Notes: generated by a model not told the origin, from the letters alone. DNA of 64,000 nucleotides from Candidatus Eiseniibacteriota bacterium (GCA_963707915.1 OY970178.1:256001-320000); one strand, 5' to 3'. Positions 14,648 to 49,147 are shown, counted from the stretch's first letter. Numbers and translations are program-made.

Positions 14648-15742
14648 ATGCCGACGGTCGAACTGATCCGGGTGAGCAAGACCTACGGGCGCGGCGCCCG
14701 CGCCGTGGACGACGTGAACCTCTCGATCCGCGACGGTGAGTTCCTGGTACTGGTGGGACCTTCGGGCTGCGGCAAGTCCACCGTGCTGCGCATGGTGGCG
14801 GGGCTCGAGGAGGTCACCGAGGGCGAGATCAGGATCGGTGACCGGGTGGTCAACGACGTCGCGCCCAAGGACCGGGACATCGCCATGGTGTTCCAGAACT
14901 ACGCGCTCTACCCGCACATGTCGGTCTACGACAACATGGCGTTCGGCCTGCGCCGCCGCAAGTTGCCCGCGGCCGAGGTGGACCGCAAGGTGCGCGGCGC
15001 GGCGGACACCCTCGGACTCGAGAGCTACCTGCAGCGCAAGCCGCGCGAGCTCTCGGGCGGCGAGCGGCAGCGCGTGGCGCTGGGGCGCGCCATGGTGCGC
15101 GATCCCCAGGTCTTCCTGTTCGACGAACCGCTCTCGAACCTGGACGCGAAGCTGCGCGTGCAGATGCGCGCGGAGATCAAGCGACTGCACCAGCGCGTGA
15201 ACGCCACCATGATCTACGTCACGCACGACCAGACCGAGGCGATGACGCTGGGCGACCGCATCGCCGTCCTGCGCCGGGGCGTGCTGCAGCAGGTCGCGGA
15301 CCCGTTCACGCTCTACGGGCGCCCGGCCAGCCAGTTCGTCGCCGGTTTCATCGGCAGCCCGCCCATCAACTTCTTCTCCGCCGCGCTCGACGAGGCCGGC
15401 ACGACGCTGCGGAGCGGGGCGGTGAGCATCGCCCTGCCGCCCGACGTGGCGGCACGACTCGCGCCGCGCCGCGGCAGGACGGTGACGCTGGGCATCCGGC
15501 CCGAGGACCTGCTACTCGAGGAGCGCGGGGCCGGCGTGGCGCTCGACGGGGTGGTGGACGTGCGCGAGCCGCTCGGTAACGAGGTGCTCGTCCATCTCGC
15601 CACGCCGGTCGGGCCGTTCATCGCGCGCTACCCGGGACAGGGCGTGCCCGAGGTGGGATCGAAGGCGAAGCTCCACTTCTCGTTCGCCAAGCTCCACTGC
15701 TTCGACCCCGACACCGAGCTCGCCCTGGACGGCGCCGGCTAG
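14648..15742 (+). CDS. malK: Sugar ABC transporter ATPase (MalK/MsmX family)
   Basis: GPSGCGKS, LSGGERQRVALGRA, FDEPLSNLDAKLR, YVTHDQTEAMTL. Confidence 0.92.
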   Translation: MPTVELIRVSKTYGRGARAVDDVNLSIRDGEFLVLVGPSGCGKSTVLRMVAGLEEVTEGEIRIGDRVVNDVAPKDRDIAMVFQNYALYPHMSVYDNMAFGLRRRKLPAAEVDRKVRGAADTLGLESYLQRKPRELSGGERQRVALGRAMVRDPQVFLFDEPLSNLDAKLRVQMRAEIKRLHQRVNATMIYVTHDQTEAMTLGDRIAVLRRGVLQQVADPFTLYGRPASQFVAGFIGSPPINFFSAALDEAGTTLRSGAVSIALPPDVAARLAPRRGRTVTLGIRPEDLLLEERGAGVALDGVVDVREPLGNEVLVHLATPVGPFIARYPGQGVPEVGSKAKLHFSFAKLHCFDPDTELALDGAG

Positions 15743-15812: not shown

Positions 15813-18515
15813 CTACTTCCCCGGCGTGGACTTCGCGGGCGCGCCCGGCTTCGCCAGCTTGAAGAGGCGACCGCTCTCCGGCGCGAGCGCGATCCTCGCG
15901 GCGCCGTCCCACGCCTCGGTCGTGCCGGCCAGCACGTCGAAGGCCTTGACGCTCCCGCCGAGCGCCGCGAGGTCCACGGGCACCTCGGCGGCCTCCTTGC
16001 CCGCGTTGAGCGCGACCAGCCACAGGTCCCCGCCGCCGGCGCGCACGTAGGCGTACGACTTGCCCTGGGCGTAGACCGTGCGGAAGTCGCCGGTGCGCAG
16101 CGCGGCGCTGGAGTGCCGCGTGGCCGTGAGCTTCTTGTAGTAGTCGAGCAGTTCGACCCGCCACGCGTCGCGGGCGTAGTCCCAGTAGAAGGGCCGGCGG
16201 CAGTCGGGGTCCTTGCCGCCCTCCATGCCCACCTCGTCGCCGTAGTAGATCTGGGGCGCGCCGACGTAGGTCATGGCGAACAGGGCGGCGAGCTTGAGAC
16301 GCTTGACGTTCCCGTTCACCTGGGTGAGGAAGCGCGGCGTGTCGTGGCTGTCGATCAAGTTCATCTGCGCCTCGACCGCCTGGCTCGGGTAGGCGAGCCG
16401 CCCCTGCGAGAGCGAGCCGTCGAACTCGGCGGCCGTGCCCTGGCCCAGGCCGAGGAACTTCGTGACCGGGTCGCGGAAGAAGGCGTAGTTCATCACCGCG
16501 TCGAAGACCCCGGGCTTCACCCAGTCGGTGGCGTTGCCCCACAGCTCGCCGACGATGTAGGCGTCGGGCTTGACCTTCTTCACCCGCTCGTTGAACAGCT
16601 TCCAGAACCAGCGGGGCACCTCGTTCGGGACATCGAGCCGCACGCCGTCGGCGTCGGCCACCTTGAGCCAGTACTCGGTCGTGTCGAGCAGGTACTGGAC
16701 CAGCGCGATGTTGGGCTGGGCGTCCTTGATGTCCTGGATGGTGCCTTCCTGCGGCCGCGTGTGCGCGAGGTCGAAATTGAGGGCGGGCAGGTCCCCGAAG
16801 CCCCACCAGCACTGGTAGTAGTCCGCCGGCTTCCACGGGCCGTCGACGTTCGGCCAGCCCTGCGGCAGCGGCCAGCGCTTGAACTCGAACCAGCTGTAGT
16901 AGGGGCTCTGCACACCCTTGTCGACCGCATCCTTGAACATGTACGACGTGTTGCCGCAGTGGTTGTAGACGATGTCGAGGACGATGCGGATGCCCCTGGC
17001 CTTCGCCTGCTTCACGAACGCGGCGAACTCCTCGTTGGTGCCGAAGTGCGGGTCGATCTTCGCGTAGTCCGCGGCGTCGTACTTGTGCGCCGATTTGGCC
17101 TGGAAGAGCGGGTTGAAGTAGATGACCGTGATGCCCAGGTCCTTCAGGTAGTCGAGCTTCTGCCGCACGCCCTCGATGTCGCCGCCGTAGAACACCATCC
17201 AGTCGCGGCCGTCCTGGGTGTAGGGGTTGCCGCTCAGCGCCTGCCAGTGGTTCCAGTCGCGATCCAGGTGGTAGTACTCCTGGTAGTCGGTGTTGAGCCT
17301 CCCGCTCGCGGGTGGCTGGTTGCGGCCCTGGTAGTACCACTCGGTGAAGTCGGGGTCGTTCGCGGTGCTGCCGTTGCGGAAGCGCTCCGGGTAGATCTGG
17401 TAGAAGATGCCGTTCCGGACCCAGTCCGGCGTGACGAAGGCGGGGAAGCGCGATTCCGCGTAGGCGAAGCGGCCTTCGGCGGCCGAGACCTTGAGACCGG
17501 CGCTCGTCAGGTACCAGCTCTTCGCCCCGTCACGGTAGCGGAACACGTACGGGGTCTCCCCGGCCGGCATCCTCACCTCGGTCCGGTAGTAGTCGTAGAC
17601 CTTGTCGCGGTTGGTCCAGCGCATCGGCGTCACCAGTTCCTTCGCGCCCTCGAAGCGGACCAGGTCCACGCCCTCCACGTCGTCCGCGTGGGCGCGCGCC
17701 GTGAACTCGACGAGCCCGCCGCCGCGGTTGTTGACCTCGTTCGCGCCCTGCCCGTGCGCGATGCCGTCGGGGTAGACCTTGCCGTCGCCGCGCTTCACCT
17801 CGATCTTCGGGAAGCGTTCGTCGACGTTCTTGACGGAGTTCTTGCCGCCGAAGCCGTCGTCGAGCTCGGCGTCCTGTCCGACCTTGTCCTGGGTCCAGCC
17901 GTTGTCGCCCACCACGAACTTGTACTGGTAGGTCCCCGCGGGCAGCAGCAGCGTGGCCGCGAAGTCGCCGTTGGCGTCCGGGCCGGCGAGCGGGTTCTTG
18001 CCCACGGTCCAGTCGTTGAACGTGCCCGCCACGCTGACGCGCTCCACCCGGGTCCCCGGGCGGAACACGAACGGCACCTGGTGGAGCCCGACGCCGGCCT
18101 GGGCCGCGGCCTTCTTCGGCGCGGCGCCGTAGCCGGCCACGAGCGGCTCGTCCTTCAGCACCAGCACCGCGTTCTGCCCGCCGAACCCGTCGGGCGAGGT
18201 GTCCGCGGCGTTCTCGTCGGCGAACCACTGGTCGCCATTCACCACGAACTTGTACTCGACGCGGCCGGGCGGGATCTCGACCGGGGCCTCCCAGACGCCG
18301 TCCTTGTTGTCGTCGTTCAGGGGATTGGCCTTGACGTCCCAGCCGTTGAAGTTGCCCGCCACGGCGACGCTGTTCACGCCGCCGATGACCGGCTGGTAGC
18401 GGAAGGTGACCTTGGTGGCCCACGCGGCCGTGGCGACGAGCAGCAGGCCGATCGTGGCCACGGTCGCGACGAACGCGCGGGAGCCCCGCGGTCCTGGGAG
18501 CGGCGTCCTCGTCAT
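15813..18515 (-). CDS. Exported GH13 neopullulanase/cyclomaltodextrinase-like enzyme with two N-terminal CBM48-like domains
   Basis: Signal (AWA|TK); VAGxFNxW...YKFVV...DGFGGxNxV twice; FYQIYPERFRNG, YGGDIEG, DIVYNH, DGVRLDV, IVGELW, LIDSHD; no CTD. Confidence 0.92.
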   Translation of the reverse strand: MTRTPLPGPRGSRAFVATVATIGLLLVATAAWATKVTFRYQPVIGGVNSVAVAGNFNGWDVKANPLNDDNKDGVWEAPVEIPPGRVEYKFVVNGDQWFADENAADTSPDGFGGQNAVLVLKDEPLVAGYGAAPKKAAAQAGVGLHQVPFVFRPGTRVERVSVAGTFNDWTVGKNPLAGPDANGDFAATLLLPAGTYQYKFVVGDNGWTQDKVGQDAELDDGFGGKNSVKNVDERFPKIEVKRGDGKVYPDGIAHGQGANEVNNRGGGLVEFTARAHADDVEGVDLVRFEGAKELVTPMRWTNRDKVYDYYRTEVRMPAGETPYVFRYRDGAKSWYLTSAGLKVSAAEGRFAYAESRFPAFVTPDWVRNGIFYQIYPERFRNGSTANDPDFTEWYYQGRNQPPASGRLNTDYQEYYHLDRDWNHWQALSGNPYTQDGRDWMVFYGGDIEGVRQKLDYLKDLGITVIYFNPLFQAKSAHKYDAADYAKIDPHFGTNEEFAAFVKQAKARGIRIVLDIVYNHCGNTSYMFKDAVDKGVQSPYYSWFEFKRWPLPQGWPNVDGPWKPADYYQCWWGFGDLPALNFDLAHTRPQEGTIQDIKDAQPNIALVQYLLDTTEYWLKVADADGVRLDVPNEVPRWFWKLFNERVKKVKPDAYIVGELWGNATDWVKPGVFDAVMNYAFFRDPVTKFLGLGQGTAAEFDGSLSQGRLAYPSQAVEAQMNLIDSHDTPRFLTQVNGNVKRLKLAALFAMTYVGAPQIYYGDEVGMEGGKDPDCRRPFYWDYARDAWRVELLDYYKKLTATRHSSAALRTGDFRTVYAQGKSYAYVRAGGGDLWLVALNAGKEAAEVPVDLAALGGSVKAFDVLAGTTEAWDGAARIALAPESGRLFKLAKPGAPAKSTPGK

Positions 18516-22488: not shown

Positions 22489-24654
22489 CTAGAAGTGGAC
22501 GATCGCCTTGAGCTGCACGACCCGCTCGCTCTCGAGCGCCTTCTCGGCGGCCGCGATCTTCGGGCCCAGCCCGTAGTAGTTGTCGTGCGCGGTGGCGCCG
22601 CTGGCGCCGCGCGCGAACAGGAACACGTCACGGCCGATGTCGGCGTAGTCGTTCAGCACGTCGTCGATGACCCAGGGATCCACGCCGAAACCGAGAGCGA
22701 GGCTCGCGCCCGGGGCGAACGTCCAGGTGCAGTCGGCGAAGTTGCTCAGGTAGCCCGAGGTCAGCCCCAGGAACGGGGCGTCGTACTTCACCCAGCGCAG
22801 GTCGGTGCCGATGCGGCAGGTCCGGGTCAGGTCGAGGCCGAGCTGGAAGCGGTACTCCGCGTACTTGGGGCGCCGGTCCAGCGCCTCGGTCTCGAACGTG
22901 CCCTTCCAGCGGAAGAGCCCGTTGCGCCGGGCCAGCAGCGGGACCTCGAGCACCGGCCGGATCCGCAGGGCGTCGGCGCCGCCGAGCATCACCATGCGGT
23001 CCACGCTGACGACGTGCTCGGTGCGCTCCAGCCAGAAGTTGCCGTCGGGGAACCAGAACTGGTAGCCCCACGGAGTGCGGGGGTCGTAGTCGAACCGCGT
23101 GTACTCGACCCCCAGCGCGGTCTTGACCTCGCGGCCGAGGTAGTAGCGCCAGTTGCGGTCCCAGTCGAGCCGCGCCACGGTCATCGAGTTCGAGATGCCG
23201 TCCAGGATGATGTGGTACGCGTGGGTCTCGTGTTCGAGCTCGGCGCGCACCAGGACGTCGCCGTGCGATTCGGCCCAGGTGCCGCCGACCAACCAGCGGC
23301 CGCTCCGGTCGAGGTCGAAACTCTCCGCGCTGGTGCCGTTCCCGCTGTCGCGCACGGCGGTGTACGACGTCACGCCGTTCGCGTCGGCGCCGGTGACCAC
23401 GAAGTCGTTCCAGTAGGTGAATTGCCCCGGCATGTAGGTCAGGCGCCGGGTGCCGGCCAGGTACTCGGCGTAGCCCCCGAACCCGCGCGGGCCGTCCCAG
23501 CTCAACTCACCGCCGAGGGCGTACCACGCCTGGTCGAAGCACTGGGTGTACGACTTGAAGGTGAGCGGGCCGGTGACGACGTTGAAGATCCCGGCACCCA
23601 GGTCGAAGCCGCGCTGGGAGCGGCCGAGCAGGCCGGCCCGGAAGCCGCGGCCCAGCGAACGGCGCAGCCGGAACGCGAACATGTCGGCGTTCTGGTCCGA
23701 GGTGTTGACGCGCAGCACTCCCGGCGCCCGCCACGGGGCCAGCGCGTAGCCGCCGGCGGAGGGCACGGTGCGCAGGCTGTCGAACGCCGTCTGGGAGAGC
23801 GGGAAGACGTCCTTGTAGCCGCTCGCGAAGTTGGGATAGTCGATGCCGCCCACCTGGAAGTTGTCCGCGTACATCGCCTCGCCGTCGAACCCGTAGAGCT
23901 GCGAGGCGATCTTGAAGCCCTGCCGGTCGTAGCCGTAGGGGTGCTGGTAGATGCCGATGGAGCCGACCAGGTGCATGGGGTCGTCCCAGGTGCCCACGGT
24001 CTCGTGGTCCCAGCCGAGGATCTGCAGCTTGCCCTTGGCGAACTGCAACGAGCCGCGATCGAAGGTCAGGCTGGTGCGGTAGTCCTGCGCCGACTGCTTC
24101 TCGCTGTTGATGTTGGTCAGGACGTGGGCCCGGAGCACGTCCGAGACGCGGATGTCGAATCCCAGGTCGGTGTCGAACTCGGGCCGGCGCAGCTCGTAGC
24201 GGCGCGTGACCGGGTTGTGCACGTCCTGGAACAGGCCGATCATGCGGCCGCCGATCAGGATCTTGGAACTGTAGGGGGAGTTCGCGGTGGCCGGGGCCGC
24301 GCCCAGGTTGCCGTCCGTGCCGACGCGGACCACGCTGTTCCCCATGTCGCCGGCGGTCGCGCTGTTCTCGGGGTCGGCCACCCACTGGCCGTCCACCACG
24401 AGCTTGTACTGGTGCTCGCCGGCCGGCAGCGGGATCACGACGCTCCAGACGCCGCTCGCGCCCTTCGCGAGCGGCGCGGCGGTCGTGGACCAGCCGTTGA
24501 ACTCGCCCGCCCAGGCGACGGTCCCGGCGTTGGGGTCGGTGTAGGTGAACCGGATGCCGCCCGTGGCCTTCTCGGGCGCAGCCGGAGCCCCGGGGGCCAG
24601 GACGGCCAGGCCCGCCAGCGCGAGCAGCACGGTCAGGGTTACGCGCTTCATCAT
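22489..24654 (-). CDS. Outer-membrane beta-barrel protein with N-terminal CBM48 domain
   Basis: GGAG RBS; signal MMKRVTLTVLLALAGLAVLAPGAPA; WAGEFNGW...YKLVVDGQWVADPEN; alternating amphipathic strands; C-terminal VQLKAIVHF beta-signal. Confidence 0.75.
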   Translation of the reverse strand: MMKRVTLTVLLALAGLAVLAPGAPAAPEKATGGIRFTYTDPNAGTVAWAGEFNGWSTTAAPLAKGASGVWSVVIPLPAGEHQYKLVVDGQWVADPENSATAGDMGNSVVRVGTDGNLGAAPATANSPYSSKILIGGRMIGLFQDVHNPVTRRYELRRPEFDTDLGFDIRVSDVLRAHVLTNINSEKQSAQDYRTSLTFDRGSLQFAKGKLQILGWDHETVGTWDDPMHLVGSIGIYQHPYGYDRQGFKIASQLYGFDGEAMYADNFQVGGIDYPNFASGYKDVFPLSQTAFDSLRTVPSAGGYALAPWRAPGVLRVNTSDQNADMFAFRLRRSLGRGFRAGLLGRSQRGFDLGAGIFNVVTGPLTFKSYTQCFDQAWYALGGELSWDGPRGFGGYAEYLAGTRRLTYMPGQFTYWNDFVVTGADANGVTSYTAVRDSGNGTSAESFDLDRSGRWLVGGTWAESHGDVLVRAELEHETHAYHIILDGISNSMTVARLDWDRNWRYYLGREVKTALGVEYTRFDYDPRTPWGYQFWFPDGNFWLERTEHVVSVDRMVMLGGADALRIRPVLEVPLLARRNGLFRWKGTFETEALDRRPKYAEYRFQLGLDLTRTCRIGTDLRWVKYDAPFLGLTSGYLSNFADCTWTFAPGASLALGFGVDPWVIDDVLNDYADIGRDVFLFARGASGATAHDNYYGLGPKIAAAEKALESERVVQLKAIVHF

Positions 24655-24683
24655 CGGTCTCCGCAGGCCTCCGGCCCCATCGG

Positions 24684-26216
24684 CTAGAAGTAGCCCTTCA
24701 GGATGAATTTCACGAGGTCCGTCTGGTCGCCACTGCCCTGGAGGTTGCCCTCGTCCACCGGGGTCGGGCTGTTGCCGATCCAGTCGGGTCCGTACTGCAG
24801 GTACATCTCCACGTTCCCGGTGGGGCGGTACTGCAACTGGGTGAAGACGGCCTTGCGCAGGATGGTGGCGTCGTTGCCGAAGGCGAAGCGGTTGTAGACC
24901 TTCAGCGCGTTGGTCAGGTTCACGGAGTTCTCGACGGCGTAGAGCTGCTTGTGCTCGGGCCGTCCCACGTTCTTGACCATCGCCTCCACCCGCAGCCAGG
25001 CGAGCTTGCTCTCGACCTGGACCTCGCCGAACCAGTCGTTGTAGTCCTCGCGGGCGGGCACGCCCATGACCTGGCGGTACTCGCTCCGCTGCCGGTAATA
25101 GGTCTTGCCGGTGAAGCCGTTGACGAACTCGATGTAGAGCTCGTTGTAGATCTGGTGCACCCGGTAGCGGCTGGTGGCGTAGCTGGAGTAGCCCAGCAGC
25201 TCGTTGGTGTAGGTGATGGCGCGCTCGGGCAGCAGGTAGTAGTTGTGGAGCTTGAACCCGGTCTCGTCGCGGCCCGGCTCGCCCTGCCCGTTCTGCCACT
25301 TCGCGCCGCGGGTCCAGTAGGTGGGGATGCAGTTCAGCGTCCCCAGCACCGGGAGCGTCAGGCGCAGCGTGCGGACCTCGGCCTGCAACACGTCCCGGTC
25401 GGGGAAGGCGATGCCGGTGGAGGTGCGGAACACCGTGACCTTGCGGCGCAGTTCCTCGGGGTACTGCACGGTGGGATCGGTGCCCTGGCTGGTGCCGTAC
25501 TCGAGCATGAAGTCCTGGCCGAGCCACTTGTAGCGGCCCGCCAGGCCGAAGATCTCGTTGCGGTCGCGGGTGCCGGCCTGGTTGTTCTCCCGCCGGCTCC
25601 AGGTGAACCCCAGCCGCAGCCGCTGGTCCTTGAAGAAGTCGCGGCGCACGCGGGCCAGGTAGATGTCGTCCGTCTTCAGCGGGTCGAGGCTGTTGTTGTA
25701 CTGGTCGCTGTAGTCGCCGACCAGGAACCAGGTGCTGAACCCGCCGTAGCCCCAGGTGTCGAAGCGCACGCCCTGCCCGCCGCCGTACCCGTTGATGAAG
25801 CGGATCAGGTACTGGTCCCAGGTGGGGAAGCGGTCCTGCTTCGAGTAGACGTAGGTGTCCATGCCGCGCTTGCCCTGCTCGCGGCGGAAGCGCATGTGCG
25901 CCTCGTTGAACTGGAACACCGGCCGCGCCGTGTTGTTGGAGCCGCTGTTCCAGTCCGCCGTGGCCTTCACGAAGGCCTCGATCCCCGGCCGGGGCTGGGA
26001 GAAGACCCGCAGTTCCACCGGGTCCCAGTTCTCGTCGCTGTTGCTGTTCCAGTCCCAGGGGAAGACCCGCCCGGTCTTGCGCAGGTCCATCATGAGCTGG
26101 TACTGGCCCTCGAGCTTGGTGAGCGCGTGCGCGGCGCCCGCCGCCAGCATCACGCACAGCGCGAGGCCGGCGGCCGACGCGAGCCGGGCCGCTCCGGGCG
26201 GCCGCCGCGCGCTCAC
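24684..26216 (-). CDS. Outer-membrane beta-barrel protein of unknown family
   Basis: Signal ending AAHA; aromatic-rich amphipathic strands; ends VKFILKGYF. Confidence 0.75.
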   Translation of the reverse strand: MSARRPPGAARLASAAGLALCVMLAAGAAHALTKLEGQYQLMMDLRKTGRVFPWDWNSNSDENWDPVELRVFSQPRPGIEAFVKATADWNSGSNNTARPVFQFNEAHMRFRREQGKRGMDTYVYSKQDRFPTWDQYLIRFINGYGGGQGVRFDTWGYGGFSTWFLVGDYSDQYNNSLDPLKTDDIYLARVRRDFFKDQRLRLGFTWSRRENNQAGTRDRNEIFGLAGRYKWLGQDFMLEYGTSQGTDPTVQYPEELRRKVTVFRTSTGIAFPDRDVLQAEVRTLRLTLPVLGTLNCIPTYWTRGAKWQNGQGEPGRDETGFKLHNYYLLPERAITYTNELLGYSSYATSRYRVHQIYNELYIEFVNGFTGKTYYRQRSEYRQVMGVPAREDYNDWFGEVQVESKLAWLRVEAMVKNVGRPEHKQLYAVENSVNLTNALKVYNRFAFGNDATILRKAVFTQLQYRPTGNVEMYLQYGPDWIGNSPTPVDEGNLQGSGDQTDLVKFILKGYF

Positions 26217-28619: not shown

Positions 28620-28742
28620 CAGGCGGCCTGACCGCTCCCGTGCCGCAGGTTTCGCGGCCGGGCCGGCATGCGCCCGATCGGGCTCGGCGCGCTGCCGGAT
28701 CGTCGTGCTCCCAAGGGACCGCCCGGCTGGAGACTCCCCGCG

Positions 28743-31241
28743 ATGAGACTGCTACGCCCCCTGCTCCTGGCCTCCTGCCTCCTGGTCGCTGCCGCGCCGG
28801 CGCTCGCCTACGACGCGCAGACCATCACGGTGGACGGCGTCAACGACTTCGTGCCCTCGAACCTGGTGAGGGACGACCGCTACGACACGCAGCGCTTCTT
28901 CTGCTCGCCCGACTCGGTCTTCCCGCTCGACATCGGACGGGTGTTCGTGACCAACGACAACAACTTCCTGTACATCGGCTTCGACTGGCCGCACAAGTGG
29001 AACTGCTACGACAAGAGCCCGAAGCCGAACCTCGGCATCGCCATCGACGTCAACACCGCGGCCGGCGGCACGACCGACCCGTGGGGGCGCAAGATCGGCT
29101 GGGCGAACGTCCCGAACAAGCCCGACTTCGTGGTCTACGACGTGCCGAAGAACCCGGAGGACGCCTACCACTTCCAGGTGATGTACAAGTGGACCGGTAC
29201 GGCGTGGGGCGACAGCACGAGGCTGGTGAACGGCGTGGGCTCGGGCCCGAACGCGCTGGGCATGGTGGACACCACCGGCTTCGTCGAGTTCAGGCTGCCG
29301 CTCGCGGCGCTGGGCGTCACCTCGGGTGCGCAGCTCAACCTGGAGTGGTGGTACACCCAGGACGGCGGCAACAAGGGCCCGCTCGACGCGGCCATGAGCA
29401 GTGACGTGCAGATGTCGAGTTTCCCGAGCCGGACGGCGTGGGACACGACGGTGGTCGTGCAGATGACCGCCATGGCCCCGTACACCGTGCTGGCCTTCAA
29501 CGACGTCACCCCGCCCACGGTGAGCCAGGCGGTGGCGGCGAACTTCCCGCTGCTGGCCGACAAGCAGTTCGGCCTGAGCACCAACAAGATCGACGTGACC
29601 TTCAACGAGCCGGTGGAGCAGGCCTCGGCGAACATCGCGGCCAACTACGTCTTCAGCGGCCCGGTCTCGCGCACCGTCATCGCGGCCTCCCGCGACCTTG
29701 CCGCACCGACCGTCGTGCACCTGCTGCTCACGTCGGCCATCCAGGCGAACGCCGCCTTCTACAACATCACCGTGAACAACGTGAGGGACCTGGCCAGCAA
29801 CACCATCGTGTCGGATGGCATCACCAACGTGGGCTCGTTCTTCATCCAGGACCTGGTCTTCAACGTCGATCCCGCCGTGGCGCTCTGCCGGGCCACGGTC
29901 GCGGCCGGCGACACGTTCGCGGTCGAGGGGAGCCTGGCGCCCCTGACCATGGCCAGCCTGTGCGACAACGGCCTGATGTACGACGGCGACGCGAACCTGG
30001 TCTGGAGCACGACCGTACCCTTCGCGATGCCGAAGAACGCCGTCAGCGGCAAGGCGGAGGCCGACCTCGAGTACAAGTACTCGCACAAGTGCGGCTTCGA
30101 GAGCGGCGCCAACCGCACCTACCACCTGTCCAGCGACAACGGCGCGAGCGTGCCACTGACCGACGCCTGGAACCGGGACAACCCGGCGGACTTCACGGCC
30201 CAGGCGGTGGACGTGATCTTCCAGGTGAACGCCGCGCGGGTCACGCCGACGCCGGCCGATACGATCTACCTGCAGGGGAACGAGTCGCCGTTGAGCTTCA
30301 CGCCCGCCGGGCTGGCGATGGCGGACGACGGCGTGGCTCCCGACCTGGCCGCGGGGGACGGCATCTACACGCGGAAGGTGCGTTTCCCGAGGTGCGCGCG
30401 GAAGAACGCCGAGTGGAAGGTCTTCTACCGGGGCGCGTTCGAGTGCTTCCAGCAGGGCAACCGAACGGTCTGGATCAACGATGCCGCCTACGACACGGTG
30501 GGCGGGGCGATGGGGCCGCTCTGGCTGCCGGCCCGCGGCATCGAGCGCTGCTCGGTGACGGACAAGCCGGTGACGGTGGTGTTCAGCGTGAGCATGTTCC
30601 CCCAGCCGCCGGCCGCGGACACCGTGGCGGTGCTGGGCAGCATCGCCCCCCTGGTGTGGGATCTGCCCATCGTCTCGCAGGCCCGCCTGAACGACGCGGG
30701 GGTGGCGTTCGACCAGGTGGCGGGCGACCGCCTCTGGACCGCCGGCGTCACCTTCCCGGACAGTTCGAACCTGAACCTGGAGTTCAAGTTCTGGCACAAC
30801 GGCATCCTCGAGTGCTTCGGGATGGGCAACCGGACCATGACCCTCGACGACGTGCTCTACTCCACGGCGACGCCCCAGGTGCGGCCGCCGAGCGTCTGGG
30901 ACTACTGCAGTGACGCCACGACCGGGGTGCTGGACGGACCGCGTCCGCAGGAGCCGCCGGCGGGCTTCGCGGTGCTCAACCAGAGCTTCCCCAACCCGAT
31001 GAGCCCGCGCACCACGATCCGCTTCGACCTCAGGCGCGCCGGCGTGGTGACGCTGTCGGTCTACGACGTGACGGGGCGGCGGGTCGCCACGCTGGTGAGC
31101 GGCGAACTCCAGGCCGGCCCGCACGACGTGCGCTGGGACGGCCGGGACGACGTCGGCAACCGGCTGCGCAGCGGCGTGTACCTCTGCGAGCTGGCCATGG
31201 GCAAGGACCGCCTCAGTCGCCGGATCGTGATCACGCGGTAA
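28743..31241 (+). CDS. Secreted non-catalytic multi-module protein (DOMON-like, Ig-like, three CBM20-like modules) with FlgD/T9SS-like CTD
   Basis: Signal MRLLRPLLLASCLLVAAAPALA; EYKY..FESGANR, EWKV..FECFQQGNR, EFKF..LECFGMGNR; DDGVAPDLAAGDGIYT; SFPNP...YDVTGRRV...WDGRD. Confidence 0.78.
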   Translation: MRLLRPLLLASCLLVAAAPALAYDAQTITVDGVNDFVPSNLVRDDRYDTQRFFCSPDSVFPLDIGRVFVTNDNNFLYIGFDWPHKWNCYDKSPKPNLGIAIDVNTAAGGTTDPWGRKIGWANVPNKPDFVVYDVPKNPEDAYHFQVMYKWTGTAWGDSTRLVNGVGSGPNALGMVDTTGFVEFRLPLAALGVTSGAQLNLEWWYTQDGGNKGPLDAAMSSDVQMSSFPSRTAWDTTVVVQMTAMAPYTVLAFNDVTPPTVSQAVAANFPLLADKQFGLSTNKIDVTFNEPVEQASANIAANYVFSGPVSRTVIAASRDLAAPTVVHLLLTSAIQANAAFYNITVNNVRDLASNTIVSDGITNVGSFFIQDLVFNVDPAVALCRATVAAGDTFAVEGSLAPLTMASLCDNGLMYDGDANLVWSTTVPFAMPKNAVSGKAEADLEYKYSHKCGFESGANRTYHLSSDNGASVPLTDAWNRDNPADFTAQAVDVIFQVNAARVTPTPADTIYLQGNESPLSFTPAGLAMADDGVAPDLAAGDGIYTRKVRFPRCARKNAEWKVFYRGAFECFQQGNRTVWINDAAYDTVGGAMGPLWLPARGIERCSVTDKPVTVVFSVSMFPQPPAADTVAVLGSIAPLVWDLPIVSQARLNDAGVAFDQVAGDRLWTAGVTFPDSSNLNLEFKFWHNGILECFGMGNRTMTLDDVLYSTATPQVRPPSVWDYCSDATTGVLDGPRPQEPPAGFAVLNQSFPNPMSPRTTIRFDLRRAGVVTLSVYDVTGRRVATLVSGELQAGPHDVRWDGRDDVGNRLRSGVYLCELAMGKDRLSRRIVITR

Positions 31242-31437: not shown

Positions 31438-31658
31438 CGTACGGCGTTCGTCCGGGATGGCGTGCGGACGGCCTTCCGGTTGGTCGCTGGCCCTGGGGAG
31501 GTGTCGCTCTACGGTCCTGACGGCTGCACCTGCCTGCGGAACGGATCTCACATCACTGCACTCGCTCACGTTCTTCGGAACGGGTCCCGTACGGCCACAC
31601 GGGTCTGGCCGCCGACGGGGCCATGCTGGATCCCGTCCGACCCGGTGGAGACTCCTCG

Positions 31659-32807
31659 ATGAAGTTCCTGCGCTACTCCCTCTCCGCCCTCTGCCTGCTC
31701 GCCGCCCTCGGCTTCGCCGCCGACGCCCAGGCTGCGATCGGCTGGGCCGGCAACGTCTGGCCGCTCCACAACTCCGTCCAGGTCCCGACCGGTCCGGTCA
31801 CCGTGTACGCCCAGGCCTGGAAGGGTGGGGTCACCGATTCGCCCGGACAGGGCGCCGGCATCTCGGCCGAGCTGTTCTACAAGACCGACATCGCCCCGAC
31901 CGAAGTCAGCGTCGCGATGGCCTACCAGGGTGACGTCGGCAGCAACGACGAGTACAAGGGCGACGTGCCCCAGAGCGCCCTCGCCGGCGCCGCGTGGGTC
32001 GAGGTCCGGGTCGTCTTCACCGACCTCACCGACCTCACGACCTACACCGGCGTGAACGACCAGAACGGGAACCCGCCGCCGCAGCGCTACAGCATCACCA
32101 ACGTGCTGCCGAACGACGTCAACGTGAAGTTCACGATGTGCATGAGCGGCACGCCGACGACCGGCGCTCCCTGCGTCATCGGCAGCGCGGCGCAGATCGG
32201 TGCCTGGGGCACGGGGGTCGCGATGACCAACGTCTCCGGCGAGCTGTGGAACGTCACCGTCACCTTCCCGGCCGGCAGCAGCCCCGCCTTCGAGTACAAG
32301 TACAAGGCCGACGACTGCGTGAACTGGGAAGGCGTGGGGAACCACTCCGTCCTGCTGCCGACCAACGGCACCACGCTGGTCGAGCTGGCGCCGGACAGCT
32401 ACAACAACGCCCCGCTCGGCTGCGGCCTGGCCCCGCTGAGCGCGGACAAGGTCGTCTGCTACCGGCTGTGCATGGCGGGGGTCGCCGGTCCGGACGTCTG
32501 CGTGATCGGCTCCGGCCCGCAGCTCACGAACTGGAGCACGGGCGTGCCCATGACACTGATCGGCACCGACCTGTACGAGGCCTGCGTCACGTACGCGGCC
32601 GGCACCCCGATCCAGAACATCGAGTTCAAGTTCAAGAAGGACGGCTGCTCGACGTGGGAGAGCGTGGGCAACCGCCTGCTGACCATCGACAACGGCAGCC
32701 CGGCCTCGCAGACCCTCACCAACAGCTGGGACAACGGCGCGGCCTCGTGCTCGCCGGTCGACACCCGGCGCACCACCTGGGGCAAGGTGAAGTCGATCTA
32801 CCGGTAG
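31659..32807 (+). CDS. Secreted protein with an amylopullulanase-type accessory module, two CBM20-like domains and TTWGKVKSIYR tail
   Basis: GGAG RBS; signal ending AQA; VYAQAWKGGVTD; VIGSxxxxxxW...EYKY..WEGVGN and EFKF..WESVGNR. Confidence 0.8.
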   Translation: MKFLRYSLSALCLLAALGFAADAQAAIGWAGNVWPLHNSVQVPTGPVTVYAQAWKGGVTDSPGQGAGISAELFYKTDIAPTEVSVAMAYQGDVGSNDEYKGDVPQSALAGAAWVEVRVVFTDLTDLTTYTGVNDQNGNPPPQRYSITNVLPNDVNVKFTMCMSGTPTTGAPCVIGSAAQIGAWGTGVAMTNVSGELWNVTVTFPAGSSPAFEYKYKADDCVNWEGVGNHSVLLPTNGTTLVELAPDSYNNAPLGCGLAPLSADKVVCYRLCMAGVAGPDVCVIGSGPQLTNWSTGVPMTLIGTDLYEACVTYAAGTPIQNIEFKFKKDGCSTWESVGNRLLTIDNGSPASQTLTNSWDNGAASCSPVDTRRTTWGKVKSIYR

Positions 32808-36438: not shown

Positions 36439-39400
36439 TCAGGGCAGGATGATGAGCCGCTTCACCTGCTGGCTGGCGCCGGCCGAGAGTCGCACGAAGT
36501 AGAGACCCGACGCAAGGCTCCGGCCGCCGTTGTCGCGCCCGTCGCAGGCCACGCGGTACTCGCCGGCTGGCTGCACCGCGCGCACCAGCGTGCGCACCAG
36601 CCGCCCGCCCAGGTCGTAGACCTCGAGCGAGACCGCCACCGGCCCGTGCGTGCCGGGCAGCGCGTAGGCGACGATCGAGCGGCCGCGCGTCGGGTTGGGG
36701 ACCGGCGTGGCGAGCGACAGCGCGCGCACCGCCGGCGCCCCGCGGTCCACGGCGACCGGCGGGCCCTGGAACTGGATGCTGGTCTGGGCGGCCGCGTTGT
36801 GGAAGCACGAGACGTCGGCCACGCCGCTGGCGATCGCCGTGTAGGGCACGTGGGACATGGGCGAGACCAGCAGGCGGACGCTCTGCTGGTCGGCCTGCAG
36901 CGTGGCGCTGCGCACCTCGAGCGAGGCCGAGGGGTTGCCGGTCTGGTAGATGGTGTAGCGGGTGGCCTGGTTCGCGGTGGCCGCGGTCACGGGCTCGTCG
37001 AACTGGACCGTGATGACGCTGTCCCAGCCGGTGTAGGCCGCGCCCACGAGGGTGGGGGCGGTGCGGTCGGTCGCGTCGGGCACGCCGTCGGCGTTCGCGT
37101 CCACAGTGACGAGCCGGAAGTCGTCGAGGGTCGGGGCGGTGGCAGCGAGGTTGTTCGGGGCCTGGTCGCCGCCGAGCGCGCCGCCCGGCTCGGGGTCCCA
37201 GGCCAGCGAGGCCACGAAGCCGACCGAGGCGCCGGACGGGACGCGACCGGCGCCCAGGCCGTAGAGCGTGTTCCAGGGGATGGCGATCTCGCTGCCGCCG
37301 TTGAGCCCGTGGGTGTGCATGGGGTCGAAGGCCGCGAGGATGGCCGGCGTCGAGTCGGCGGAGGTCGTGGCGCTCGTCAGCTTCCAGAACGACTGCCCGT
37401 CGTAGATGCCCTGGTGCTGGTAGGAGCCGAACTGCCAGTCCGGCTTGAACCCGGCCGCCGTGAACTGCGCTCCGCGTTCCCAGTGATCGATGGTCCGCAG
37501 GTCGGTGAATCCGTTGGGGCCGTTCGGGTCGGTGTCGAGGTAGAGCAGCCAGGAGTTGCCCGTGACCACGCCACGGATGCCCAGGTAGAGGTAGGTGCTG
37601 TCCCACTGGCAGTAGACCGCCTGGATCTCGTTGTTCGTCTGCCCCGGCGAGTTCCAGCCCGAGTCGAACGAGTCGGCGACCGCCATGGTGCAGGACGGCC
37701 ACTCGGACGGGTTGACGTAGCCGTCGAGGGTGATGAGCGTCGGCGGGCCGTAGGAGACCGGCACGTTGCCCGCGTTGGTGAGCAGGGCGCACGGGTTCGC
37801 CGCCGGATCCCGCACCGCGCCCGGCTGCAGCAGCAGGCGCATCTGGTTGTGGTCGACGCCCTGGATGGCGGTGTGGACCGCGCCCGAGACCAGGATCGTG
37901 AGGATCGCGCTGTTCGCGCCGTTCAGCACCGTGCAGCCGCCGTCGAGCGTGACCTCGGCGGTGCCGTCGTTGTTCGCGTCGACGGCGATGCCGGCCATCG
38001 TGACCTGGTCGTAGCGCACGGTCTCGTCGAAGGTGAGCGTCAACTGGTGGGTGGCGGGGAAGTAGGTCCCGCTCACCGCCTCGGGCGGGAGCCGGTCGCC
38101 GAGCGCGGCGGACAGCGCCTGCAGCTCCGCCACGTTGCCGCCGCCGTCGGGCGCGGAGGTCGGGCCGGCGTAGACGTAGAACTCGAACTTCTGCGTGCCG
38201 CGCACCTCGTCGGCCTTCATCAACGTGCCGCCGACCTCCTTCTGGAACTGGGCGCCGCCGCCGCCGAGCACGAAGGCGCCGGTCGCCCCGGTGTTCGGGT
38301 TGCGCCGGCCCATGTAGGAGATGTCGGGGGCCCAGATGCGGTCCATGCGGGCGTTGTAGAGCAGGTCCACCAGGTCGGGCGTCCAGCCGCTCTGGATGTA
38401 CTGGGTGTTGGCGCCGACGCGGTAGACGCAGTCCAGGTAGGGCTGGCCGAGCGTCAGGCGCACCACCTTCTTCACGCCGGAGTGGGCGAACGTGGCCTGG
38501 ACGGTGTTCCCCGACGAGGTGTCCACCTGCATCGCGTAGAACTCGCCCTGGTGGTCGGGGCCGACGTCCGAGAGCGCGGCGACGTGGTTGCCGTCGTTGT
38601 AGTCGCCCTCGGTGCCGTACCAGTAGGCGTTGTCCACCCCCACCACCGAGAAGCTGGCCGGGCCGCTCTTCGCGAACACCCACGGGGCCCGCCCGCCGAT
38701 CGACTCGAAGGCCGCCAGCACGCGGTCGTTGTACATCACCAGCTCGCTGTTGCCGTCGTCGTCGATGTCCGAGAAGTAGGCGCCCGTCGGATTGACGAAC
38801 TGTCCGCCGGCCCAGCGGGCCGCCTCGGCGTAGACGCTCGCGTTCTTGATGTGCGCCGAGTACTGGCGCTGCCAGCCCGAGAGCGGTCCGCCGAGGTAGT
38901 CGTGCCAGCCGGTCTCGTGCAGGTTGGTCATCATCACGTACCAGCCGGCCTCGCGGATGTTGTTGTCCGGGGCGGCCTGCAGCGCCGCGTGCGCATCGTT
39001 CCAGAGCGTGCCGTGGTCCTTGCAGTTGCCGCCCGTGCCCGCGCAGCCGCCGCTGCCGTTGCCGCCGGTGGAGTAGGGGACGTAGCCGGCCCAGTCGGCG
39101 TACCAGGCGTTGTTGTTGCCGCCGTAGCCGTTGACGTCGCCGATCCCGCCGTAGGTGCCGTTGGCCGGCGTGAAGGTGTCGCCGTTGAAGTTGGCGTTGG
39201 CCAGCGCCGGATCGAGCTTCCAGGTGTGCAGCCACGCGCTCTCGGTGGCGCACTTGTCGATCATCCACTGGTAGGTGCCGTAGGCGTAGGGGAAGTCGGT
39301 CGCCCAGTTGCCCAGCCCGGCGGCCATCTCCCAGTCGTCCGCGTAGGTGACGAGACGGTAGGTGCCCAGCCCGGAGCCTGCGAGTCCGGAGAGCACCGCG

Positions 39401-40644
39401 AGCGCCCCGGCGCCGTCGCCGGAGTGGAGCTTGCCGGTGAAATCGGAGTCGCGCGGGATCAGGCGCAGGCCGGTGCCGGACATCGTGTGGATCCGGTGGT
39501 TGTCGTGGCCTTGGAGGTGGGGCCAGTCGTCGAGGATCACGCCGTCGATGCCGTGCGACTGCCAGTGGTTCGAGGTCGCATCGATGACCCCGTCGCCGGG
39601 GTACTGGCCGGGCGTGAGCCAGACCCGCTCGGGCACCCAGGCGACATGCGGCGTGTAGCCGTAGCGCCAGGTGTCCATCGCGACCTGGCGATCGATCGCC
39701 CAGTCGTTCATCGCTCCCTGCAGGAACGGCAGGATGGGCTGGCCGTAGGCCGAGGAGACGATGCCCAGCCAGCCGGCCGTCACGCCCGCGCGCATCCACG
39801 CGTTGAAGTCCACCGGGTCGCCGTTCCTCGCGTCCCACTCGGCCGAGGACTGCAGCAGCCCGCTCAGGTGGACGTTGACCGGAACGTTCTTGTTCTGGTG
39901 GACGCGCAGGATCTCGTCGAACCCGCTGGAGGCCTCGGCGCCCGATCGGCCGTGGAAGACGTCGCTGTAGGTGAGCCCCTGGTTGCCGAAGTGCATGAAG
40001 GCGACGTTCGCCTCGTAGGCCGCAGCCTGCTGCCCGCCCAGTGGGACCACCAGGCGGTCGAGCTCGCGGCCCCGCGCCAGCGTGATGACCGCGGCCTGCC
40101 GCGGCGCGCCGGCGCCGCGCGGCAGCGAGGCGGCGAGCCACCCCTGCTCGAGGTGGAAGGCGGCGCGATCGGCCGCGAGCGGCGTGCCGGGCTCGAGCGC
40201 GGCGGCGCTCACCAGTGCCGGTCGGTCGGCGCCCGGCTCCAGGACGACCATCCGGTCCCAGGCGAAGGGCGCCCGTCCCCGCAGCGGCGCCGGCAGGTCG
40301 GTGTTGCGGCCGGTCCCCTCGTCCAGCAGGAGGAGGGCGCGGACCTGCCCGCGCTCGAAGTGGTTGACGCGGTCGCGGATTCCCAGCGGGGCCACCAGGC
40401 TCACGCGGAACGTGAGGTCATCCCCCTCATCGTAGTATAATGCAAGGATGTTGGCGGCACTCTCGAGCTCGCCGACACCGGTCCGGATGTGGCCGATGCC
40501 GACGACCGAGCCGCGCGGCCAGGCGTCGGGGCGGGCGAGCAGGGCCTCCGCCCGCCGGGGAACCGCCGCGGACGCCGAGAGGGCGATGAGCGAACCCAGG
40601 AGGATGACGAAGGTGACGAGGACGTGGGGGCGGGCAGGTCGCAT
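36439..40644 (-). CDS. Secreted GH57 alpha-amylase/4-alpha-glucanotransferase-like multidomain enzyme with DOMON-like, Ig-like and FlgD/T9SS-like CTD
   Basis: Signal peptide; MHFGNQ, YGQPILP, WVPERVW, YADDWE GH57-like motifs; DIDDDGNSELVMYND; PVPNP...YDLGGRLVRTL. Confidence 0.8.
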   Translation of the reverse strand: MRPARPHVLVTFVILLGSLIALSASAAVPRRAEALLARPDAWPRGSVVGIGHIRTGVGELESAANILALYYDEGDDLTFRVSLVAPLGIRDRVNHFERGQVRALLLLDEGTGRNTDLPAPLRGRAPFAWDRMVVLEPGADRPALVSAAALEPGTPLAADRAAFHLEQGWLAASLPRGAGAPRQAAVITLARGRELDRLVVPLGGQQAAAYEANVAFMHFGNQGLTYSDVFHGRSGAEASSGFDEILRVHQNKNVPVNVHLSGLLQSSAEWDARNGDPVDFNAWMRAGVTAGWLGIVSSAYGQPILPFLQGAMNDWAIDRQVAMDTWRYGYTPHVAWVPERVWLTPGQYPGDGVIDATSNHWQSHGIDGVILDDWPHLQGHDNHRIHTMSGTGLRLIPRDSDFTGKLHSGDGAGALAVLSGLAGSGLGTYRLVTYADDWEMAAGLGNWATDFPYAYGTYQWMIDKCATESAWLHTWKLDPALANANFNGDTFTPANGTYGGIGDVNGYGGNNNAWYADWAGYVPYSTGGNGSGGCAGTGGNCKDHGTLWNDAHAALQAAPDNNIREAGWYVMMTNLHETGWHDYLGGPLSGWQRQYSAHIKNASVYAEAARWAGGQFVNPTGAYFSDIDDDGNSELVMYNDRVLAAFESIGGRAPWVFAKSGPASFSVVGVDNAYWYGTEGDYNDGNHVAALSDVGPDHQGEFYAMQVDTSSGNTVQATFAHSGVKKVVRLTLGQPYLDCVYRVGANTQYIQSGWTPDLVDLLYNARMDRIWAPDISYMGRRNPNTGATGAFVLGGGGAQFQKEVGGTLMKADEVRGTQKFEFYVYAGPTSAPDGGGNVAELQALSAALGDRLPPEAVSGTYFPATHQLTLTFDETVRYDQVTMAGIAVDANNDGTAEVTLDGGCTVLNGANSAILTILVSGAVHTAIQGVDHNQMRLLLQPGAVRDPAANPCALLTNAGNVPVSYGPPTLITLDGYVNPSEWPSCTMAVADSFDSGWNSPGQTNNEIQAVYCQWDSTYLYLGIRGVVTGNSWLLYLDTDPNGPNGFTDLRTIDHWERGAQFTAAGFKPDWQFGSYQHQGIYDGQSFWKLTSATTSADSTPAILAAFDPMHTHGLNGGSEIAIPWNTLYGLGAGRVPSGASVGFVASLAWDPEPGGALGGDQAPNNLAATAPTLDDFRLVTVDANADGVPDATDRTAPTLVGAAYTGWDSVITVQFDEPVTAATANQATRYTIYQTGNPSASLEVRSATLQADQQSVRLLVSPMSHVPYTAIASGVADVSCFHNAAAQTSIQFQGPPVAVDRGAPAVRALSLATPVPNPTRGRSIVAYALPGTHGPVAVSLEVYDLGGRLVRTLVRAVQPAGEYRVACDGRDNGGRSLASGLYFVRLSAGASQQVKRLIILP

Positions 40645-44631: not shown

Positions 44632-49147
<4,516 letters not shown>

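Follow-up and report, generated by a model that had tools for sequence, protein, structure and literature searches.

To our knowledge, starch-derived chains cross the outer membrane of diderm bacteria by two known routes, through small passive porins of the LamB type or through TonB-powered SusC/SusD or MalA systems. Here we describe a probable glycan-uptake locus in which neither route is present and whose outer-membrane parts are new and family-less. It lies on a 64,000-nucleotide stretch of DNA from a Candidatus Eiseniibacteriota bacterium (GCA_963707915.1 OY970178.1:256001-320000), which we call the window (~71% G+C) and within which all positions are counted. At its center stand two adjacent genes, P0001 and P0002, for predicted outer-membrane barrels, the first of which carries an N-terminal carbohydrate-binding module (CBM) of family CBM48. 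The cassette that contains them probably imports starch fragments without Sus or maltoporin machinery. With confidence only slightly better than even, we propose more specifically that it encodes a TonB-independent α-glucan import module, made of two plug-less barrels and of CBM48 modules tethered on the periplasmic side.

An initial annotation of the window had reported two adjacent, co-oriented genes for proteins of 721 and 510 residues with signal peptides and a terminal phenylalanine. Translation and a plot of G+C content at third codon positions (GC3) confirmed both genes in place, on the minus strand (Table 1). The GC3 frame plot resolves a single long operon on this strand, and for the pair it supports the frames of P0001 and P0002 and no others. 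Both N-termini are signal-peptide-like, and the C-termini read ...IVHF (P0001) and ...KGYF (P0002). AlphaFold2, run with 54-row alignments, returned an all-β model for P0001 (predicted local distance difference test (pLDDT) 86.6, predicted template modeling score (pTM) 0.76) and for P0002 (pLDDT 84.9, pTM 0.75), the latter with its first strand at about residue 32. We searched both models with Foldseek and VIA-align, and the matches are outer-membrane barrels only, with alignments that span whole 22- and 24-stranded barrels. Both proteins are accordingly predicted to be outer-membrane barrels, as the initial annotation had claimed. As counted from DSSP strings, each predicted barrel has 24 strands, with two-residue connections all on one face and long loops all on the other. 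This pattern reads as the usual N-in/C-in arrangement, in which both termini of each barrel would be periplasmic.

The fold searches identify a class rather than a family. The matches of P0002 include PapC (2vqi; Z 16.6, root-mean-square deviation (rmsd) 5.4 over 359 aligned residues, model residues 34-510), PapC in the P-pilus tip complex (7lhg_C; Z 15.6, rmsd 3.8 over 373, residues 31-510), FimD (6e14_D; Z 15.1, rmsd 4.1 over 375, residues 31-510), AlgE (Z 16.3, rmsd 6.6 over 297, residues 32-510), and Wzi (Z 15.5, rmsd 7.0 over 276, residues 32-402). P0001 matches FyuA (Z 15.8, rmsd 6.5 over 383, residues 130-721), AlgE (Z 15.3, rmsd 5.8 over 301, residues 131-607), and FimD (3ohn; Z 14.4, rmsd 4.8 over 328, residues 130-721). 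Dozens of unrelated barrels lie within 2-3 units of the top Z scores (15.8 for P0001, 16.6 for P0002), and Foldseek TM-scores range from 0.2 to 0.5. Since no match stands clear of the crowd, the fold gives the class (large outer-membrane barrel) and not the family. Full-length VIA matches of both models to the barrels of TonB transporters (Z 12-15.8) pair a DSSP count of 24 strands with their 22. An earlier suggestion that the two proteins might form a split barrel is not supported, because each is modeled as a complete barrel and matches whole usher and TonB-transporter barrels over residues 130-721 (P0001) and 31-510 (P0002).

By sequence, neither barrel could be placed in a characterized family of Pfam, NCBIfam, or the PDB, and the description of the family as uncharacterized stands. 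P0002 has no Pfam or NCBIfam match at E ≤ 1, nor has any of its 54 family members scanned singly. P0001 has none at this threshold outside CBM48, and its own 54 family members, scanned singly, returned nothing but CBM48 in Pfam. Eight P0002 and five P0001 orthologues of other phyla and 26 remote P0002 relatives likewise gave no match other than the CBM48 of the P0001 type, a CsgG-like segment in the relative P0332 excepted. Sequence profile searches of the PDB gave CBM48 entries only for the P0001 family, chance-level matches in L6 for the P0002 family, and none for a broad P0002 alignment (A5). In agreement with the initial annotation, no TonB box or plug is evident: no Plug or TonB-receptor match occurs at E ≤ 1, the P0002 barrel begins at about residue 32, and the N-terminus of P0001 is the CBM48. 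The Plug domain (PF07715) is absent from the window, and the 11 Plug matches of the genome all lie outside it. LamB (PF02264) has no match in either barrel and none in the whole genome. The Usher family has no match in P0001, P0002, or the scanned members, and P0002 lacks terminal domains. No family match at E ≤ 1 was found for an autotransporter translocator, a C-terminal barrel of 12-16 strands; the P0001 barrel has ~590 residues and ~24 strands by prediction. AlgE (PF13372), an 18-stranded barrel, matches in fold at VIA Z scores of 15.3 (P0001) and 16.3 (P0002) and has no Pfam match in P0002 or its 54 members; one source names the homologue P0214 'Alginate expo...'.

DUF6029 (PF19494) was examined as a lead for P0002 and was confirmed neither by HMMER nor by hhalign. 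It is the nearest named cluster by language-model features (0.95), while hhalign against three Cloacimonadota DUF6029 proteins reached a probability of only 28% over 312 collinear columns. HMMER gave no DUF6029 match in P0002, its 54 family members, the eight orthologues of other phyla, or the 26 remote relatives. The above-mentioned P0332, a remote P0002 relative of 698 residues, has an N-terminal CsgG/LpoB-like segment (PF03783, E 1.9e-7) ahead of its barrel (match 179-698) and is, by these matches, a second case of a periplasmic-type domain fused N-terminally in this barrel family.

The N-terminal CBM48 that had been proposed for P0001 is genuine. Two Pfam families match above their curated cut-offs (PF16561, E 2.7e-13, 50.3 bits with a cut-off of 26.8, residues 36-108; PF02922, E 9.8e-8, 32.7 bits with a cut-off of 22.4), and both do so in 54/54 family members. 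The module follows directly on the signal peptide. The AMPK β CBM (2f15, E 1.5e-11) aligns to it with conservation of FNxW and GEHQYK.VDGQW, which are also conserved against 4y0g, and W55, K84, W91, and N106 are invariant among the 54 members. We take these residues to be the sugar-contact positions of the AMPK-β CBM (the Trp of FNxW, the Lys of QYK, the Trp of DGQW, and the Asn near the C-terminal strand). Family match and predicted sugar-contact residues together assign the P0001 N-terminus to the CBM48/AMPK-β modules. A search that covered proteins of 396-1262 residues found 110 relatives of the P0001 barrel, all with CBM48 except the five shortest entries (405-628 residues), which are probably partial; in none of the 110 is the barrel joined to any other binding module. 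The linker between CBM48 and strand 1 is the part of the P0001 model with the lowest confidence (block 121-130, pLDDT 57), as would suit a flexible tether.

By profile comparison, P0001 and P0002 are distantly related paralogues that arose by an ancient duplication. Hhalign of P0001 125-404 against P0002 26-244 gave a probability of 95.3% (E 2.3e-8, 212 columns) with strands 1-11 in register, using broad alignments (A4, 32 sequences; A5, 39 sequences) that include Cloacimonadota, Krumholzibacteriota, Fibrobacteraceae, and remote representatives. An earlier comparison with Eisenbacteria-only alignments had reached 28.6% over 49 C-terminal columns, on strands 20-23 of both proteins. It is the broad alignment that identifies the barrels as ancient tandem paralogues. 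The loosely similar early segment that the initial annotation had noticed in both proteins is more than a chance resemblance, since GTWDDPMHLVG of P0001 aligns with PTWDQYLIRFIN of P0002 inside the 212 columns; by DSSP topology the motif lies in loop L3 of both. Relative to P0002, P0001 has gained the CBM48 and ~117 extra loop residues. The genome contains no further paralogues, and each barrel is single-copy.

The pair does not stand alone. With the P0002 profile we scanned a single genome for each species and obtained 80 loci, in which all open reading frames (ORFs) were translated and searched with profiles and with the proteins of the window. The loci are labeled Eisenbacteria, Cloacimonadota, Krumholzibacteriota/-iia, Neomarinimicrobiota, Fibrobacteraceae, and, in one case, 'Gemmatimonadota'; homologues of both barrels carry Candidatus Eisenbacteria names. 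Where the sequenced neighborhood leaves room, a CBM48-barrel lies on the same strand within 600 nucleotides downstream of the P0002 homologue (64/68 loci; in the other four it follows at 675-1114 nucleotides or the assembly is frame-broken), a PorV-like barrel lies directly upstream (64/69), and a homologue of g431, the first gene of the cassette, lies upstream as well (62/66). An ORF that best matches the 132-residue lipoprotein P0003 was found in 65 of the 80 loci, after the CBM48-barrel in every listing seen; it was counted by best match, since the lipoprotein query also matches the CBM48 of the barrel gene. These genes form a conserved module of five: g431, the PorV-like barrel, P0002, the CBM48-barrel, and the CBM48 lipoprotein. 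The identity of P0002 orthologues drops to 26-30% in Cloacimonadota, which shows that the gene order has outlasted deep divergence. A large GH13 enzyme with CBM48s stands after or near the cassette in many loci, often with MalK, and all eight CBM48 matches of the 3.6-Mb genome fall in this locus. A conserved α-glucan catabolic setting is thus supported. The P0002 family is small; of 1.84 billion cluster representatives, 156 match at E ≤ 1e-3. Public annotation calls the cassette proteins 'hypothetical', 'glycogen-binding domain-containing', or 'isoamylase early set domain-containing'.

The fifth gene of the module, P0003, encodes a lipobox (LLVAGC, Cys18) and a CBM48-like domain whose Pfam matches fall just below the cut-offs and which the P0001-family profile recognizes at E 5.6e-11. 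The segment after the cysteine, C-S-x-L-N-F-I-K-(K/R)-R-L-P-P-P, is kept across phyla (alignment A3, 48 sequences), with C18, R27, and P31 invariant and K25, L28, and P30 conserved in at least 90% of sequences. Such conservation makes a docking segment more likely than a spacer. The most conserved elements of P0002 are the predicted periplasmic turns T7, T8, T9, and T11 (LPER 0.87, FVNG 0.93, SKL 0.90, RPTGN 0.86), which point to a periplasmic partner; these turns and the P0003 tether would fit a docking on the periplasmic side. The conserved non-strand elements of P0001 are the predicted extracellular loops L3, L9 (YDPRTPWGYQFWFPDGNFWLE..., 8 aromatics in 38 residues), and L12, which are aromatic-rich and conserved at 0.67-0.72, as expected of loops that fold into a channel and shape it.

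Table 1. Positions of genes and domains in the window
Feature	Position	Strand	Description
g431	28458-27163	-	431 residues; secreted; frame supported by GC3 plot
PorV-like small barrel	27166-26213	-	317 residues; TTG start codon at 27166
P0002	26216-24684	-	510 residues; predicted plug-less outer-membrane barrel, ~24 strands; GTG start
P0001	24654-22489	-	721 residues; signal peptide, CBM48, ~20-residue linker, predicted barrel of ~24 strands (residues 131-720)
CBM48 domain of P0001	24322-24573	-	residues ~28-111; PF16561 and PF02922
P0003	22470-22072	-	132 residues; CBM48-like lipoprotein with lipobox and conserved post-Cys tether
g544	22040-20406	-	544 residues; putative lipoprotein; CarboxypepD_reg-like and X25/CBM48-like segments, all below curated cut-offs
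593-residue lipoprotein	20409-18628	-	DUF2092 (LolA-like) domain and three CBM48 copies
GH13 enzyme	18515-15813	-	900 residues; maltodextrin-glucosidase/cyclomaltodextrinase type; N-terminal CBM48s, Sec signal peptide
MalK-type ATP-binding cassette (ABC) ATPase	14648-15742	+	ABC_tran, OB_MalK, and TOBE_2 matches
g857	28668-31241	+	FlgD_ig/Por_Secre_tail-type end
CBM20 protein	31623-32807	+	394 residues; secreted; two CBM20 domains
GH57-like protein	36439-40665	-	1408 residues; FlgD_ig/Por_Secre_tail-type end
GH13_1144	40436-43870	+	FlgD_ig/Por_Secre_tail-type end
ELFV_dehydrog / ELFV_dehydrog_N frames	47680-48432 and 48584-49147	-	~150 nucleotides apart
Peptidase_C25 protein	57972-62696	+	~1570 residues; Propeptide_C25, Peptidase_C25, FG-GAP repeats, FlgD_ig end

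In the operon, g431 and the small barrel overlap by 4 nucleotides, as do the small barrel and P0002; the other gaps measure 18-31 nucleotides. The small barrel matches TraF_2 (PF13729, E 1.3e-5) with 25.0 bits at a cut-off of 25, and PorV2 (NF052325, E 1.3e-11) and PorV_fam (NF033709, E 2.6e-8) far under their cut-offs and through the N-terminal motif only (NF033709: 33.8 bits with a cut-off of 90, residues 24-89; 22 bits in the genome scan). By its matches it is a divergent relative of PorV/PorQ/TraF_2 proteins and not a member by curated cut-off. Downstream of P0003, g544 (N-terminus ...GAGAC) is an Eisenbacteria-type addition to the cassette. The 593-residue protein has a lipobox, matches PF16561 in three stretches (E 5.8e-46), and passes the DUF2092 cut-off of 21.2 with 22.0 bits. 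The 900-residue GH13 enzyme matches PF00128 (E 8.6e-63), PF16561 in two stretches, and NF008051 (E 3e-106) and NF041090 (E 3.2e-87), the last two under their equivalog cut-offs; it is probably periplasmic because it has a Sec signal peptide and lacks a C-terminal sorting domain.

Sorting signals divide the proteins of this locus into two groups. The C-terminus of g431 weakly matches that of PorU (NF033707, E 0.0018) and FlgD (3osv, E 0.012), and its pattern resembles the FlgD_ig/Por_Secre_tail ends of the neighboring enzymes. This type of end is shared by g431, g857, the GH57-like protein, and GH13_1144, with the common pattern ...YD.xGR.V..L...G...W.G.D..G....G.Y..RL......R..V.... Language-model neighbors of g431 carry Por_Secre_tail and CBM9_1, a lead by which its N-terminal part is possibly CBM9-like. 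The genome outside the window encodes an SprA-like ORF of 2352 residues (501 bits summed) and at least eight PorV/PorQ-family barrels over the cut-off, and the proteins with sorting domains are probably cargo of the type IX secretion system (T9SS) at the cell surface. Every CBM48 protein (P0001, P0003, g544, the 593-residue lipoprotein, and the 900-residue GH13 enzyme) lacks a sorting domain and has a lipobox or a plain signal peptide instead. The division suggests that, in this locus, surface and periplasm are served by different types of module. From this split and the N-in topology we infer that the CBM48s are periplasmic and held at the outer membrane; the periplasmic CBM of the initial annotation is in this sense supported, provided that the N-in/C-in topology read from the strand and loop pattern holds.

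Some further observations concern the T9SS-related genes and other parts of the window. The set of PorV paralogues in the genome is unusually large, and each barrel may serve a particular cargo. The C-terminus of the Peptidase_C25 protein follows the pattern given for the proteins above, and from its domains this protein looks like a PorU-like T9SS sortase. The CBM20 protein has two starch-binding domains and no catalytic domain, and it adjoins g857 in close relatives too. A Glu/Leu/Phe/Val dehydrogenase is divided between two separate frames (C-terminal domain ELFV_dehydrog, N-terminal domain ELFV_dehydrog_N); the gene could be split or frameshifted, or the sequence could contain an error.

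The import that we propose would proceed as follows. Enzymes and binders with T9SS domains, namely the GH13 (40.4-43.9 kb) and GH57-like (36.4-40.7 kb) proteins and g431, would cut or hold starch at the surface, where g431 may be retained by the adjacent PorV-like barrel. Long maltodextrins would then cross both barrels without TonB energy, as the lack of a plug and TonB box and the genetic context suggest. Emerging chains would be caught by membrane-tethered periplasmic CBM48s, which would bias entry. These modules would be supplied by P0001 through its ~20-residue linker to strand 1, by P0003 through its tether, and by the two further lipoproteins; their placement follows from the barrel topology and from the occurrence of CBM48 only on proteins without a surface-sorting domain. 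The chains would be passed for trimming to the CBM48-bearing periplasmic GH13 enzyme (15813-18515), and its products could enter the cell by an ABC importer of the MalEFGK type for which the locus has the genes.

Several points weigh against this import model. The lumen of the modeled barrels may be open, but the CBM48 could also sit inside it, or loops L3, L9, and L12, which are conserved, could fill it. Barrels for secretion or export (PapC/FimD, AlgE, Wzi) match at Z scores equal to those of uptake barrels, and the fold consequently gives no direction of transport. Strand count and topology are a reading of DSSP strings and not of the three-dimensional models. The periplasmic position of the CBM48s is deduced from the N-in rule together with a correlation observed in a single locus, and the ~20-residue linker could in principle thread a wide barrel. 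We know of little precedent for a periplasmic CBM outside enzymes. Finally, the cassette is accessory within the phylum, being present in 59/201 genomes sampled and in 41/121 of high quality.

If the barrels were instead wide secretion pores that place CBM48 on the surface, where it would bind starch as SusE/F do, P0001 would behave as an autotransporter of unusual size, its passenger at the N-terminus and its barrel at the C-terminus, and P0002 would carry the CBM48 lipoprotein(s) to the outside, as ushers or Slam-type barrels do with folded domains. The order passenger-linker-barrel of P0001, the usher pores as best fold matches of P0002 (PapC, and 7lhg_C with its low rmsd), the high scores of AlgE and Wzi, the T9SS-related parts of the cassette, and a P0003 tether that could serve as a threading segment all speak for such an export. 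We nevertheless consider it unlikely, although it deserves serious weight, because the sequence searches gave no match to an usher, autotransporter, Slam, or AlgE family and the Z scores of uptake barrels come within one unit of those of export barrels. The surface-bound proteins of the locus carry a C-terminal sorting domain that the CBM48 proteins lack, and the CBM48-rich GH13 enzyme is of a type that normally acts on imported oligosaccharides. Export would moreover leave the locus without an outer-membrane import route, given that the window has no Plug and the genome no LamB. Alternatively, the barrels could be closed and loop-filled and do nothing but anchor a CBM48-rich glucan-binding and amylase assembly, with sugars crossing by unrelated general porins. 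The unusual conservation and aromatic content of the predicted loops L3, L9, and L12 of P0001 would be expected if they fold into the lumen, and P0002 also matches Wzi, which is an anchoring barrel of the lectin-like kind. Yet two large 24-stranded barrels are a costly anchor where the operon already provides lipid anchors, and the strict pairing of paralogous barrels over so large a distance in sequence (27-30% identity) suggests that the barrels have a function of their own, which makes anchoring alone a distinctly improbable explanation. That the pair might be ordinary general porins that came to lie in a starch locus by chance is scarcely credible. OmpF-, OmpU-, and Occ-type porins do occur among the fold matches, but CBM48 is fused to one barrel in all full-length family members seen, both barrels are single-copy and locked in one cassette across phyla, and the family is rare.

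A more far-reaching version of the import model would make the cassette a third kind of glycan uptake. The two barrels, paralogous and 24-stranded, would assemble into a single heteromeric gate, and on the periplasmic side the lumen of each would be closed by a CBM48, provided in cis on P0001 and in trans on P0002 by way of the LNFIKRRLPPP tether of P0003. By analogy to the β-sandwich plug of ushers, the CBM48 would be drawn out when it binds an incoming glucan chain, the channel would open, and entry would be rectified, so that long polymers would be imported in a ratcheted, substrate-gated fashion without TonB energy, in at least five mostly uncultured FCB-group phyla. We regard this elaboration as speculative and rather unlikely.

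The cassette belongs to lineages that abound in soils, in sediments, and in digesters. Most of them lack cultured representatives, and what is said of their polymer uptake therefore comes from annotation alone. Should the barrels prove to be the import route, they would provide a marker for α-glucan use in these phyla, allow the uptake of long chains without an energy source to be tested, and offer structural biology a new protein family. If CBM48 is displayed on the surface instead, the barrels would represent a new kind of self-exporting anchor. In the excerpted text of a Fibrobacter cell-envelope proteome, CBM48 is mentioned only on GH9 enzymes (PMC6851124), and the excerpted text of a Cloacimonadota survey lists CBM48 among the modules of carbohydrate-active enzymes and has nothing on outer-membrane proteins (PMC12590816). 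The full-text literature that we searched yielded no description of a barrel fused to a glycogen-binding module, nor of such a fusion in company with a second, paralogous barrel, a small PorV-like one, and a CBM lipoprotein on a tether.

Among described systems, the ushers PapC and FimD are the best geometric match of P0002 and match the P0001 barrel over its full length (Z 14.4-16.6, rmsd 3.8-5.4), with the same 24-strand size. The proteins described here differ from them in that they show no Usher match, no mid-barrel plug, no N- or C-terminal periplasmic domains, and no pilin or chaperone genes nearby, and they occur in a context of carbohydrate catabolism. The small barrel shares with PorV/PorQ of the T9SS the N-terminal motif of the family and a neighbor with a T9SS-type C-terminal domain, but it scores far below the family cut-offs and is dedicated to this cassette. 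DUF6029, a family of uncharacterized ~480-residue barrels from Cloacimonadota and other phyla, is similar in size to P0002; in three Cloacimonadota genomes, however, DUF6029 genes occupy other loci. Each of these genomes encodes one such barrel, away from the starch cassette and with the conserved C-terminal motif KGGKVCRNGxCKY.

With LamB, ScrY, and CymA the proposed module would share a passive, substrate-specific passage of α-glucans beside a MalK-type ABC importer, and it has conserved aromatic-rich loops in common with them. There is also a likeness in fold (ScrY, Z 14.2 for P0001; LamB 1mal in Foldseek, TMq 0.29). The difference lies in the absence of any sequence match and in the size of the barrel, which has 18 strands in LamB and ScrY, 14 in CymA, and ~24, as in ushers, by our prediction here. 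These porins have no counterpart to the fused CBM48, the paralogous partner barrel, the dedicated lipoprotein, or the PorV-like neighbor. The SusC/SusD systems of Bacteroides (with SusE/F/G) resemble the locus as a cluster of outer-membrane barrel(s) of similar size, starch-binding lipoprotein(s), surface binders, and GH13 enzymes, and SusC-type barrels are matched in fold (BT1762-1763, Z 13.9-14.5). In contrast to Sus, the locus described here has no plug, TonB box, or SusD-like protein, its binding modules are CBM48s, and one of these is fused to a barrel and faces, probably, the periplasm rather than the outside of the cell.

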